From Octopus vulgaris (lineage: Eukaryota), in the NCBI GenBank assembly GCA_951406725.2, contig OX597842.1:14136001-14200000 (forward strand): a stretch of DNA of 64,000 bases. The letters run 5' to 3'. A program made the position numbers and the translations under genes. Below, in pieces: positions 3,283-57,613 of this stretch (the first letter of the stretch is position 1; every line of letters starts with the position of its first letter). The notes under the pieces were generated by a model, which searched no databases, was not told the DNA's origin, and saw only the letters and a program-made list of their open reading frames with translations.

Positions 3283-3354
3283 AGAGATGTTAAACGGGAA
3301 AGATTTCGGAATATTTCTCCTTTCATTTCTTTGATATCATTAAAACTCAAATTC
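3283..3354 (-). CDS. LRR exon (singleton type) NLSFNDIKEMKGEIFRNLSRLTS(L); most 3' LRR exon in the window
   Basis: 72 bp, cag|...|gtaag, phase 2-2, typical LRR consensus. Confidence 0.9.
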
Positions 3355-4384
3355 CTGTCAAATAAAATTGAGTTAATTAGAATTTGTAAGGAACTGATTT
3401 TTGATGAAGTAAAAGAAGGAAAAGAATTCAGGAAAAGCGTGAAATTAGAGGCGTCTGTCTAAAACAATTTTAAAATTTGAAAGAAGATGGAAAAGGAATA
3501 GGAGGCGAATGAAAGGAAGACTGAAAATATGTAGAAGGGTATGTAGGGACGGGGTAGAAGGAAAACAAAGAAAAGAAGAAAGGGGAAAATGAACAGAGAG
3601 AAGAAGAAGAAGCAAAACGCTGAAAGGTCGGCGGGAATCGAGTGTCCGAAAAGTATAAACCGATGAAGTGGGATGAAATCTGGAGGAACTAAAAATAAGA
3701 AGAATGAGTAGAAAATAAAGTAAAAGATGACGGCAGTGAGGCAGAAATAAAATACCTGAATGAATTTAAAGAAGTGAAAGAAAAATTAAAGAAGGAAAAC
3801 AGGAAAATAACTGAAGGAAAGTAAATAGGAGCAGAAGAAAAGGTAGAAGAAAATGCAAAAGAGGCACCAGGAAAAGAATAAAAGGTGGAGATAAAGAAAA
3901 CAAAGAAAGAGATTAAGAAGGAGCTGTCGAAAATGAAGAAGCCGAAGCAGAAGGAGTAAAAGAAAAATAAGATGAAGGAGAGAAATAAGGAGAAGGAGGT
4001 GGAGAAAGAGGAGAAAATGAAACAGAAAACGATATCGAATAAGAGGGAAAAGTATACAAAGAAAACAGAAGAAAATTGATTGAAGAAAAATGTGACGTAG
4101 AAGAAGAAGAAGAAGAAGAAGAAGAAGAAGAAGAAGAAGGAGGAGGAGAAGAAGAAGAAGAAGAAGAAGAATTATTTGGTCGAGAAGAATTTTAGGAAGA
4201 GAAAGATTAATTAGAAAACAAACAGAAAGAAGAAAAGGCGGAAAGAAGAGAAAGAAGGATATAGAGATTATTTACAACGATGATAACGGGAGAGAGGGAG
4301 AAATGTGAAAAGGGTGAAGAGCAAAAGAGTAGTAGTAGTAGTAGTAGTAGTAGTAGTAGTAGTAGTAGTAGTAGTAGTAGTAAG

Positions 4385-5140
4385 GGAAATGTGTTTGAAT
4401 TGTTTTCGTGAGAGTTACGAGGCCCTCTTGCGAGAGATACACTGGTCCGTGTAAAGTATAGATAGTAAAGCCCCGAGTGAGTTGAACGTTCAGAGTTCGG
4501 AGTCGAGGGAAGCTCGTATTAGTTCACAGTGAAGTCGTAGGTTGTCGGTTGGTTACTTCACAACGAATATTGATTGTTGGGTCGGAGAGAGATTTCTCAG
4601 TTCGATACATTGTCGTTACTGTTCTCCGCTTAATTATTGTACGTAACAATTACGTTACAAGGTCTGGCGACGAGAGCTTCGAACATCACGTGGGTTATTT
4701 AACAATTTGTTGGTGATATAACGTGTTAAATAATGGGAGACCGACTAGCTTACACAGTACAGTTTCTAAACCAGAGTAGCAGCATCATGAGTTGCAGAAG
4801 CAACAACAACTATCACAACAACAATTATAGGAGCTATAATAGGAGCCAAAGAAATCGAAAAATTAGCTAAGTTTGTTTTAGCCAGACCGCATTTCGAACT
4901 CGGTTAATGAATTCAGTTATAATTCAGAGGATAGGATAACATTTACTACTACTGAGGGCACAAGGAGATGGTTAAGCAAGATAACAAATCATGCTGAGAC
5001 GAACAAGTGAGATTTTTATTGGGAAAATTATCTCCGTTAAAGCATGAACATTAACGTAATTTCATATTACCCAAAAAGGCAAATGAGATTTGTTCTGAAG
5101 AAACAATAGATTTACTCTCGAACATATTAAAGCTCCCCTA
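4385..5140 (+). mobile_element. Gypsy-like LTR retrotransposon remnant (LTR-like segment, PBS, decayed gag)
   Basis: PBS-like TGGCGACGAG at ~4666, then decayed gag-like LLGKLSPLKHEH*RNFILPKKANEICSEETIDLLSNI. The gag fragment recurs at ~21355-21570, 34615-34830, 46535-46750 and 56080-56300. Confidence 0.55.
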
Positions 5141-6161
5141 TTTAACACTTAGATGGAATTTTGGAATATAACGAAAAAAACGAATGAAGATTTTTTGACA
5201 TACGGAGGATCAGTCAACATGACGTGAAAGTTTTTAAATTGCACCTGAGAGGTAAAGCAGTGGAGAAGGATATAGGGTTGTTGTCTTGATGACGAAGAAA
5301 TTACGATGAGGAGTAGCAGGAGGAGAAGGGGAGGAGAGTGGAAACGAAGAAGGAGGTGAAAAAGAAGACGAAGAAGGGGTAAAAGAAGGAAAAAGAAGAA
5401 AAGGTGGAAGGAAAAGAAGACAAAGAAAGGAAAATAGAAAAAGAAGTAGAATAAAAGAAGGGAATACAAAGGAGAAAAAGAAAAGAAGGAAGAGAAGAAA
5501 GGCAGAACACAAAGAGGAAGAGATGGAAGAGGAAGAAGAAGAAGTAACAAAAGAAGTAGAAGAAGAAGAAGAAGAAGAAGAAGATTAAGAAGAAGATTAA
5601 GAAGAAGAAGAAGAAGAAGAAGAAGAAGAAGAAGAAGAAGAAGAAGAAGAAGAAGATGAAGTAGAGGAGGAAGAATGATGGTAATTAGTGGCTATGGCGA
5701 CGGAAGCACCGTACATGATATACACGCCGAAATATTCATACATTTTGATACGCTCCCTTCCACACATCCATACACATTCACACAGACATATATGTATGCA
5801 AAAATAAGTTTCCTCTAACATTTTCCCACCAATTGCTACACACTCATAAATCCGAAAACTCATAAATATGCCCTCACTCATATTCACAAACGTTGGCAAA
5901 CATTACCTTGCCCTTTGGACAGACAATGGTTGTAGACATACACAGAAACATACACATTCATTCACTAAATTGTTCCCCGCAAGTATCACTCAGTCATATG
6001 TACCATATCAAGAAACGGGCCCACACTCACAGATTGATATACATGATAACACATCTTTGGAAAGACGGGTGAGGTTGCTTCAAATGAAGTATTGGAAGAC
6101 ATTACATTTATAGAAATATATCGTCAATGTCATAATAAAAATAAACACTGATTCAACTTAC

Positions 6162-6233
6162 AGACTTGTTAAACTGGACAGATTTCGGAAGGTGTCTGGT
6201 TTGAGTTCTTTGATACCATTAGAACTCAAAGAT
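6162..6233 (-). CDS. LRR exon family A: SLSSNGIKELKPDTFRNLSSLTS(L)
   Basis: 72 bp, ccag|...|gtaag, phase 2-2. Confidence 0.9.
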
Positions 6234-6952
6234 CTGGAACATAAAATTCACTTAAGAAGGAATTGTATAGAACATTTTGGCTAAAAAATAAGGATTTCGG
6301 AAGTTATGTAAAGTAGAACACGATGATAATTAGTTTCATGATGATGATGGTGATGATAATGTTGATAATGCTGCTGTTGATGATGATGATGATGATGATG
6401 ATAATGTTGATGATAATGATGATGATAATGATAATGATGAAGGGGAAGTTGAGGAGGATAAACGTGGTGGTAGAACTGGTGGAAGATGTGATGGTCCTAG
6501 TAATGAATAAGATGATGAAACAGAAGATATGAATATTTGGTTGTAGGTTTGATGACGATGTTATAATGATAATGATAATAATAATAATAATAATTATAAT
6601 ATTGATAATAATAATAATAATAATAATAATAGTAATAACAATAATAATAATAATAATAATAATGATAATAATAATGATAATAATAACAATAATAATAATA
6701 ATAATAATAATAATAATAATAATAATGATAATAATAATAATGATAATAATGATAATAATAACAATAATAATAATAATAATAATAATAATAATAATAATAA
6801 TAATATTTACAGACTCAAAAATCTATTTCTATCGAAAAAGTGTGATAATATTGAGCAAGGCAAGGTCGGGACGTGATATAAAATGGGAATATTTCAAATG
6901 TTTAGTAATATATTGTCAGTGAAATTTTATCAACAAGACTTTTGCAACTTAC

Positions 6953-55547: not shown

Positions 55548-55619
55548 AGATATGTTAATATGGGCAGGTCATGGAAGGCTCTTACTTCAATCTCACTGAT
55601 TTCATTATTTTGCAAATAT
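55548..55619 (-). pseudogene. LRR pseudo-exon family E; donor GT>TT
   Basis: Same sequence as 20820-20891. Confidence 0.8.
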
Positions 55620-57190
55620 CTAACATGAAGAATTGAAAGTATAAAACAAGTGTATAAAAATAATGTGAACATTTGGAGAGAATGAATAAAGAGGAAACGA
55701 GTGGGAGAAAGTTTTCCAGGGAGAAGGAGAATAAAAAGAAGAGAAGGAAGAGATAGAAGGAAAGAGGTGTCTGGATGGGAAGGAGTTCAGAGGAAGACAA
55801 ACAGCATCAAAATGCAAAACAGAAGCAAAAGGAGTAGAGAGAGGAAGTCGAATACCTATAATACAAACGCTAGAAATGGGATGAAATAAGGAAAGAACAG
55901 AATGAAGAATATGCAACAAATCTATGTTCAAATTATGAAGTGCTTCCAATACTTCATTTTAAGACCTCTCACCCCTCTTCCCAAAGATGTGTTATCATGT
56001 ATATCAATCTGTGACTGTGGGGCCATTTCCTTGATATGGTACATAGAACAGAGCGATACTTGCGGGGAAGAATATTGTGAATAGGATAACATTTACATCG
56101 TACTACTGAGGGCACAAGGAGATGGTTAAGCAAGATTACAAATCATGCTCAGACGAACAAGTGAGATTTTTATTGTGACAATTATCTTCGTTAAAGCATG
56201 AACATTACCGTAATTTCATATTACCCAAAAAGGCATATGAGATTTGTTCTAAAGAAACAATAGATTTACTCTCGAACATATTAAAGCTCCCCTATTTAAC
56301 ACTTGTATGGAATGTTGGAATATAACGAAAAAAAAAGAATGAATATTTTTTGACATACGGAGGAACAGTCAACATGACTTGTGAAAGTTTTACAATTGCA
56401 CCTGAGAGGAAAAGCAGTGGAGAAGGATATAGGGTTGGAGTCTTGATGACGAAGAAATTACGATGAGGAGTAGCAGGAGGAGAAGGGGAGGAGAGTGGAA
56501 AAGAAGAAGGCGAAAAAGAAGGAAAAGAAGGAAAAGGGGGAAGGAAAACAAGACAAAGAAAAGGAAAGTAGAAAAAGAAGTAAAATAAAAGGAGAAGGGA
56601 ATACAAAGAAGGAGAAAAAGAAAAGAAGGAAGAGAAGAAAAGAAGAACGGCAGAATACAAAGGGGAAGAATGGAAGAAGAAAAAGAATTAGAAGAAGAAG
56701 AAGAGGAAGAAGAAGAAGAAGAAAAAGAAGAAGAAGAAGAAGAAGAAGAGTAGATGATAGTAATTAGTGGCGATGTCGACGAAAGCACCGTACATGATAT
56801 ACACGCCGATATATTCATACATTTCGATACACTCCCTTCCACACATCCATACACATTCACACAGACATATATGTATGCAAAAATAAGTAGTAGTAGTAGT
56901 AACAGAAACATCAGTTGTAGTAGAGAAAGGCAAAGATGGAGTCGCAGAAATCGTTGGATTGGTTAAAGAGAACAAACAAGGTTGGATGTAACACAAAATA
57001 ATATACATGCCAACACTCAGATTCGAACACACACTGACACACGTATTTACACACACACACACACACAATCAGACGAGAATTGAGAAAACAGATGGGGTAT
57101 AAGGACATGGTGAGAATATGAATGGAAAGTTCTTGAATATTTGGAGTGTATTGTCAATGAAATATTATGAACGTGGCTTATTCAACTTAC

Positions 57191-57262
57191 AGATCTCTTA
57201 AACTTGGTAGGCCATGGAAAGCTCTTATTTCAATTTCTTCGATATCATTATTTTCTAAATAT
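57191..57262 (-). CDS. LRR exon family C: YLENNDIEEIEIRAFHGLPSLRD(L)
   Basis: 72 bp, intact AG/GT, phase 2-2. Confidence 0.9.
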
Positions 57263-57541
57263 CTGTTAAAAAAGAAGCAGAAGATTAAAAAGGAAGGAAA
57301 ACTCAAAATGCAAAAGAGAGCCAAACTCGTAGAAGTGAGAAGTAAAAAGCAAAAACGGAAATGCTAGAAGTAGAATGGAAGGAAGTCGCAGCAGAGAACG
57401 AAGAATAAGAAGACTAAAGTGAAAAACTTCAGTAATGGTGAAGAAATTAAGAGTAGAAAGAGTTCAGAATGAAGGGTGGGAAGATATTACATATTTAGAG
57501 ATATGTAACGAAATGTTATAAGAAAGAATGATTCTGCTTAC

Positions 57542-57613
57542 AGAGATGTTAGACTGTACAGATTACTGAAGACGCCTTCTTTGATTTCTTTCATATGATT
57601 ATCGCTCAAGTAT
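57542..57613 (-). CDS. LRR exon family D: YLSDNHMKEIKEGVFSNLYSLTS(L); most 5' intact LRR exon in the window
   Basis: 72 bp, intact AG/GT, phase 2-2. Confidence 0.9.

Follow-up and report, generated by a model that had tools for sequence, protein, structure and literature searches.

The 64,000 bp stretch of the Octopus vulgaris genome analysed here (assembly GCA_951406725.2, referred to as G000; contig OX597842.1, positions 14,136,001 to 14,200,000), hereafter the window, corresponds to C29:14136001-14200000, C29 coordinates being counted on the window's own contig. It carries an array of exons that each encode one leucine-rich repeat (LRR), with introns that cut the predicted ligand-binding beta-strand, and it raises the question of which gene these exons belong to, whether their variability is selected, and whether the intron position is the cause of that variability. 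We consider it likely that the window is part of the LRR array of an octopus adhesion G-protein-coupled receptor (GPCR), that selection diversifies the predicted ligand-binding concave face, and that the intron position was inherited and did not cause this diversity.

A profile scan of the window identified 31 LRR exons between positions 3283 and 57613, all 72 nt long, in phase 2 and on the minus strand, each consisting of 1 nt, 23 codons and 2 nt (CT) and encoding a single repeat. With the LxxLxLxxN motif numbered L1-x2-x3-L4-x5-L6-x7-x8-N9, where x denotes variable positions, the intron cuts the Leu codon of L4 (LxxL|xLxxN) in all 31 exons, as an earlier note on this DNA had reported. The AG/GT splice sites are intact in 27 of the 31 exons, and the donors of the other four are dead (GA at 12980; TT at 20820, 34080 and 55548). 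All LRR exons are frame-neutral, a form in which the dead exons persist, and the array extends past both ends of the window.

Evidence for diversifying selection on the concave face

Selection was examined on a family-wide exon set: 240 exons were found, 16 with broken splice sites were removed, and 93 of the 224 intact exons, having no close relative, were left out, resulting in 131 exons in 29 families defined by a flanking-intron identity of at least 85%. Minimum changes per codon were counted without a tree, which makes the count robust to recombination, and were compared with an intron rate based on 454 intron variants; a second run used unfiltered proximal introns and 3000 family bootstraps. 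A codon model of our own (an MG94-type grid on intron trees) provided twice the log-likelihood difference (2dL) against omega<=1, a value that recombination inflates. Positions were grouped as x3+x5, x7+x8, x2+x10, ten other exposed positions and seven core positions.

Nonsynonymous changes were most in excess at x5 (26 observed, 4.6 expected), x3 (21 and 4.7), x7 (19 and 5.1) and x8 (13 and 4.6); x2+x10 gave 15 against 9.6, the ten other exposed positions 65 against 46.3, and the seven core positions 10 against 31.3. Synonymous changes numbered 38 against 35.4 expected, or 1.07 times the intron rate. On the scale of the intron rate, x3+x5 change about 4.5-5 times as fast, x7+x8 about 3 times, other exposed positions 1.3-1.4 times and core positions 0.3 times, with a ratio of nonsynonymous to synonymous rates (dN/dS) of 4.7 at x3+x5 (p=3e-12) and 3.1 at x7+x8 (p=6e-6). 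The bootstrap run returned 4.5 times (3.2-6.2) for x3+x5, 2.9 times (1.9-4.1) for x7+x8 and 1.25 times (0.9-1.7) for other sites, and the codon model a 2dL of 88.6 for x3/x5, 31.6 for x7/x8, 1.8 for x2/x10 and 0.9 for other exposed positions. In the window alone (26 of the 27 intact exons, in 7 families) x3+x5 carry 13 changes where 2.0 are expected (dN/dS 4.3, p=4e-4), and concave sites differ from other exposed sites at p=0.047. The concave-site excess is strongest in C29b, a paralogue on the same contig (23 changes versus 1.5 expected), and persists when C29b is omitted and in C10, C26 and G2 alone. Eight database proteins from three octopus species, contributing 49 repeats, show a similar distribution: the within-group extra states number 12 at x5, 11 at x3, 15 at x7, 15 at x8 and 9 at x2, and at most 6 at any other position.

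Several non-selective sources of this variation were considered. Hypermutation at exon edges was rejected, since neighbouring synonymous and intron sites are not raised: exon nt 1, which is synonymous, has 1 variant, nt 2 has 16, and nt 68 and 69 have 10 and 9, where 2.1 are expected, and intron positions +7 to +16 average about 2.1 variants per site. A deaminase- or editing-type origin was rejected by inspection, as the changes at x5 and x3 cover all substitution types. Templated conversion can be at most a partial source: 17 of the 63 five-prime 13-mers of variable families recur in other families among the exons compared, and 46 have no donor among the 240 exons. Because the concave sites exceed both intron and synonymous rates without edge hypermutability, the data support diversifying selection on the concave face at x3, x5, x7 and x8, as the earlier note had suspected, and concave dN/dS in the 131 exons lies above that of other sites and above intron divergence.

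The earlier note had counted eight states at x5 (N, S, Y, F, R, L, D, H) and six at x3 (S, Y, N, D, H, T); both counts are correct, with the His at x3 coming only from the donor-dead exon 12980, which leaves five states in intact exons. Raw state counts were rejected as evidence, given that convex x16 has nine states and x12 has seven; only within families does the concentration of variation at the junction hold, and there it lies well above chance. The differences that the note had described between young paralogues are likewise real and nonsynonymous: exons 22584 and 35822 differ at exon nt 3 and 12, and exon 19526 or 32805, which share one sequence, differs from 54277 at exon nt 8. Two of these three changes fall at x8 and x7 and are not adjacent to the junction.

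Position of the intron relative to the beta-strand

In the AlphaFold (AF2) model of P0085, an Octopus sinensis relative (pLDDT 86.9), strands formed by x3-L4-x5 recur every 24 residues, and its fold resembles those of chondroadherin, LRRTM2 and FLRT; a model of full-length P0010, also from AF2, was of low quality (pLDDT 45) and was left aside. Judged from the P0085 model, the intron would sit at the centre of the strand, on the split L4 codon, in agreement with the earlier claim that each concave-face strand is built from two exons. In established LRR structures the residues at x3 and x5 point outward from the strand, and such exposure on the central strand would explain why these two positions vary most. 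A control exon scan yielded convincing exons in two of six regions: the same phase-2 boundary occurs in four exons of an unrelated octopus LRR gene on C11, whose best PDB matches are ALS and LRIG1 and whose name is not settled, and in one exon on C7.

Since these unrelated genes share the intron position, since a fixed border within the beta-sheet has been published for NLRs, since ROCO LRRs are selected at the same four sites with a boundary that apparently lies elsewhere, and since x7/x8 vary as much as x3/x5 in the other octopus proteins, the junction appears incidental, and it is likely that the intron at L4 was inherited as part of LRR gene structure and does not cause the variability. 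Of the suggestion that the junction itself is special, only a modest excess at x3/x5 stands; the intron site is generic.

Splicing of the exon array

Three contig sets, presumed to be RNA but none recorded as such, have high depth in bins covering exons and nearly none in most intron bins. Their joints fall on the predicted splice sites (CT..AC), including four pairs of adjacent window exons, and the contigs, which stem from this gene or its near-identical paralogues, show that the family is expressed but not that this copy is. Fifteen of 31 joints were inspected; of the 14 joint types tested, 12 have a genomically adjacent exon pair within 2 mismatches in 50 nt and two run backwards. Joints that look like skips were not accepted as exon skipping, being accounted for by paralogues. 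For one O. sinensis locus of the family, the annotation lists six isoforms set apart by complete 24-aa units with borders at L4|x5; as annotation models they may reflect mapping artefacts, and variation at x2/x3 is low in this subfamily. In the window's gene (gene W), 43 adjacent junctions make 32 distinct strands, and use of all forward pairs would give at most 131. Junctional surfaces made by skipping, which the earlier note had proposed, are possible: skipping would re-pair the x2/x3 of one exon with the x5/x7/x8 of another, conceivably as a secondary source of diversity.

Identity and layout of the gene

Gene W has 51 LRR exons above threshold, 44 of them intact, or about 56 when five weaker ones are included (the last LRR, an exon of 69 nt that stays in frame, one exon with a frameshift and two degenerate copies). 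Its LRR exons span C29:14226404-14074205, and its LRRCT, Cys-rich, SEA-like, hormone-binding-like, GAIN/GPS and seven-transmembrane (7TM) exons span C29:14070511-14025186, outside the window; the names SEA-like and hormone-binding-like are tentative and follow in part the layout of P0010. The exons downstream of the array match, at 85-100%, P0021, a gene model without any LRR whose source name is 'adhesion GPCR G6-like, Octopus vulgaris' and which has Pfam matches to the secretin-type 7TM domain (PF00002, 7tm_2, E=3e-29) and GPS (PF01825, E=4e-13). The terminal 7TM exon of gene W has an open frame, and its GPS, encoded by the exon at C29:14036704, reads CDHL-TSFALLM, which we take to be a His-Leu/Thr cleavage motif followed by a tethered-agonist-like peptide. 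Because PF00002 is found in P0021, which the downstream exons match, and a GPS with a cleavage motif in these exons themselves, gene W is assigned to the adhesion GPCRs. The LRR array and the GAIN-7TM exons are collinear, with no other family gene found between them; in the RNA contigs no transcript was seen that spans the join from the LRRs to the 7TM or from the last LRR exons to LRRCT. The relatives C29c and C8 have the full layout, with a signal/LRRNT exon, LRR exons and the same body as gene W. Judged from sequence, the window would form the central part of the LRR array in an LRR-LRRCT-Cys-rich-SEA-GAIN-7TM adhesion GPCR gene.

G000 contains about 50 related 7TM exons at 45-100% identity, and the 21 database matches are all from Octopus; a search with a 45-codon frame of the window returned no homologs at E<=1e-25. 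A separate class-B GPCR expansion is seen at C9:28.19-28.88 Mb, a dense cluster of some 25 distant 7TM matches with long open frames. The Cys-rich exon of gene W (C29:14065845-14065660) forms a second hypervariable patch in comparison with C29c and G2: relative to C29c it carries 10 nonsynonymous and 2 synonymous differences, mostly in one short loop, and the flanking exons 0-3. This domain has no Pfam match, and its Cys pattern is reminiscent of Ly6/uPAR folds. By inspection, the Octopus bimaculoides family member P0028 has an apparent death-domain sequence C-terminal of the 7TM; the accessible text of Ritschard et al. mentions one octopus adhesion GPCR sequence with a death domain (PMC6408891).

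Growth of the array and its paralogues

Between the signal/LRRNT exon and LRRCT there are 32 LRR exons in C29c, 29 in C29b and 49 in C8, and C10 and C26 have at least 43 and at least 32. The window's array grew by tandem duplication of exon-plus-intron blocks of 9.5-20 kb with 95-99% identity, which alters the number of repeats. One donor-dead exon was carried along as blocks duplicated and stands unchanged in six copies (window 20820, 34080 and 55548; C29:14205178, 14214765 and 14224331); C29b contains a seventh near-copy. A series of five tandem blocks, each about 9.5 kb long and with 99% identity, runs from window 45964-62868 on to about 93500 and stops at an assembly gap, and the true number of blocks may differ from that assembled.

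Four-gamete violations in exons of 5 families point to recombination or recurrent change within exons. C29c (C29:15066772-15233354) is an inverted near-copy of gene W, about 95-98% identical from the LRRs to the hormone-binding exons, but only 48% identical in the last 7TM exon; the GAIN-GPS of gene W instead matches C29b. The paralogues would therefore be mosaics, of chimeric origin. C29b (C29:14815173-14924500) has a signal exon, its LRR exons and the body as far as the GPS; no 7TM exon was found in the 115 kb past its GPS exon, up to 15040000, and its product is possibly secreted. At C8:79051000-79083100, a group of SEA-like and hormone-binding-like exons is tandemly repeated at least four times.

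On the reading we prefer, exon-plus-intron blocks duplicate in tandem and shift the number of repeats, recombination within exons and mosaic exchange between paralogues would reassort their variants, and the concave face would bind variable ligands, most likely microbial or other non-self surfaces, with signalling through the conserved GPS/tethered-agonist 7TM part. The intron would merely happen to fall between x3 and x5.

Comparison with known systems

An octopus-specific expansion of adhesion GPCRs was described by Ritschard et al. in 2019 (PMC6408891), whose accessible text reports LRRs in 5 of 22 sequences and positive selection at the level of branches, with no selected sites. Group 3 of that study resembles the present family in having a GPS and an adhesion 7TM, tandem clusters, LRRs in some members and branch-level selection, and differs from the findings made here, which comprise arrays with 29-56 exons of one repeat each and selection at four concave positions. 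In the literature covered, no paper was found on these exon arrays or on site-level selection in octopus adhesion GPCRs; most subscription papers fall outside this coverage, and the supplements of PMC6408891 may list member genes.

Brown-algal ROCO genes resemble the octopus array in having one LRR per 72-nt phase-2 exon, inactivated exons, exons shuffled between paralogues, and selected positions that correspond to x3, x5, x7 and x8. In the accessible text on Ectocarpus ROCO exons (Zambounis 2012, PMC3341825), the selected sites are 15, 17, 19 and 20, which in our mapping of the numbering become x3, x5, x7 and x8, and the exon consensus starts and ends outside the strand; a second brown-algal study lists sites 14, 16, 18 and 19 in a 23-residue numbering (PMC11378527). 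ROCO proteins signal through a ROC-COR GTPase and have their exon boundary outside the strand, whereas the octopus gene would signal through an extracellular GAIN-7TM receptor part, and every exon found is on the coding strand. No ROC-COR Pfam match was obtained in P0021, P0019, P0006 or P0010; the octopus gene resembles the ROCO arrays in how it works, without belonging to the ROCO family.

Human NLRs and S/T-class LRR genes share with the octopus array frame-preserving LRR exons, a border in the beta-sheet and a proposed basis for splice diversity: Hoss et al. (2019, PMC6642158) describe, for most NLRs, a fixed border inside the beta-sheet and, for S/T-class LRR genes, a modular exon structure, and a review repeats the NLR border (PMC11352923). 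NLRs differ in having repeats of 28/29 aa, being cytosolic and showing demonstrated exon skipping (PMC6642158); the accessible text of that paper reports neither young exon amplification nor comparably strong site selection. The VLRs of lampreys and hagfish share the 24-aa LRR modules and the variability of the concave face (PMC3900441), and 16 of the 25 PDB sequences matched by the exon profile are VLRs or derived from them, judged in part by name, making this the commonest class. VLRs are assembled somatically from cassettes in a conversion-like process (PMC3900441), whereas the octopus modules are spliced, in order, from germline exons of a GPCR gene; the genome and RNA contigs, in which they appear as ordinary spliced exons, gave no evidence of somatic assembly.

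Alternative explanations

A neutral or technical origin, whether through weakened constraint, short gene conversions out of other exon families, hypermutation at exon edges or errors of assembly, would fit the four-gamete violations, the recurring 13-mers and the presence of tandem blocks with 99% identity, a difficult target for assembly. We regard it as very improbable and already largely refuted: relaxation cannot raise a rate above the neutral one, synonymous changes run at the intron rate with the core far below it, synonymous and intron sites next to the variable codons are not raised, most variant 13-mers have no donor, and the counting was free of trees and the same pattern recurs in proteins from other assemblies. 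A Dscam-like system that exploits the intron position, with regulated skipping of exons to make new x3|x5 strands as a main source of receptor diversity, also seems unlikely. Such a system would suit the frame-neutral exons, the strand centred on a split codon, the rise from 32 to 131 strands in gene W, the 1.6-fold lead of x3/x5 over x7/x8, the O. sinensis isoforms and the dead exons, which must be skipped already; yet nearly all joint types tested are explained by adjacent pairs and the rest run backwards, the intron site is generic, ROCO genes select the same sites, x7/x8 equal x3/x5 in other octopus proteins, and isoform annotations in repeats can be mapping artefacts. A broader proposal is that a germline repertoire of giant LRR adhesion GPCRs and secreted forms lacking the 7TM would constitute a variable recognition system, in which exon cassettes with hypervariable concave faces, recombination between paralogues and per-cell exon skipping creating new junctional beta-strands would couple VLR-like sensing to G-protein signalling; we hold this to be speculative and rather doubtful.

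It is also conceivable, although we lean away from it, that the surface under selection functions in self-recognition among neurons or epithelia (wiring of a protocadherin-like kind, or the recognition of mates or kin) and not in antimicrobial defence, an alternative that differs from our preferred reading in the ligand only. Arms races typically show a dN/dS that stays high at contact sites, birth and death of genes, and paralogues of chimeric origin; a dN/dS of 3-5 at the putative contact sites, together with the gene turnover and the apparent chimeras seen here, speaks against self-recognition. In its favour, the closest folds of the modelled repeats include neuronal adhesion LRRs, and group-3 genes are expressed in the axial nerve cord, suckers and skin, for which the accessible text of PMC6408891 proposes a role in wiring; according to the same source, expression in another octopus is high in gill and skin, which argues the other way.

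Several observations weigh against our preferred reading. The 5' end of gene W is missing: its array stops upstream at a 100-N gap (C29:14229549), and no signal-peptide exon was found upstream as far as the next gene. In gene W alone, other exposed sites are raised as well (26 changes against 13.8), the contrast between concave and other exposed sites is not significant (p=0.15 in the gene as a whole), and neither are x7+x8 by themselves (p=0.16); x2 and x10 are not above neutrality in the codon model. Gene conversion that makes introns more alike would push the ratios up, C29b being the clearest case. Finally, x3/x5 exceed x7/x8 about 1.6-fold in the nucleotide data (bootstrap 1.1-2.3; exact p=0.07), a modest excess that leaves some room for an effect of the junction.

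Features of the window

The entire window (1-64000, minus strand) would lie within a single adhesion GPCR gene, inside its LRR array. From the left, where the array goes on beyond the window, intact exons with AG/GT sites lie at 3283-3354, 6162-6233 (linked to 6953 by RNA contigs), 6953-7024 (linked to 7967 and 6162), 7967-8038, 8669-8740, 10428-10499 (Arg at x5), 10785-10856 (Leu at x5), 11062-11133 (linked to 11699), 11699-11770, 12057-12128 (linked to 12334) and 12334-12405. The pseudo-exon at 12980-13051, with donor GA, has the window's sole His at x3, and is followed by intact exons at 13307-13378 and 19526-19597 (DLSSN type), a pseudo-exon with donor TT at 20820-20891, and intact exons at 22584-22655 (FLSYN) and 27747-27818. 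Intact exons 32805-32876 (same sequence as 19526) and 35822-35893 (SLSSN) enclose a further donor-TT pseudo-exon at 34080-34151, after which come intact exons at 41492-41563 (same sequence as 27747), 43711-43782, 45364-45435, 45722-45793, 45999-46070 (His at x5), 47644-47715, 47996-48067 and 54277-54348 (DLRSN). The last pseudo-exon, again with donor TT, lies at 55548-55619, and intact exons follow at 57191-57262 and 57542-57613, beyond which the array continues past the right end to the assembly gap. On the plus strand, frames at 23487-27341, 37241-40274 and from 63117 onward resemble, by inspection, reverse-transcriptase elements of the long interspersed nuclear element (LINE) type; they sit in introns and have been copied along with the exon blocks.

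Significance

The recognition repertoire of cephalopods is, to our knowledge, poorly known, and the ectodomains of adhesion GPCRs are usually conserved. A family with 30-56 one-repeat exons and a dN/dS of 3-5 on its predicted binding face is therefore a concrete candidate for a role in immunity or in telling self from non-self. Most of the LRR exons are absent from current gene models, and P0021 has none; the lack of selected sites in the accessible text of the published study (PMC6408891) is probably due to this omission. The idea of a special exon junction adds little, as a fixed within-strand border has already been described for NLRs and appears incidental here. Concave-site selection in a cassette-built LRR adhesion GPCR is real and strong, and the variable predicted binding face likely reflects selection to recognise changing targets.

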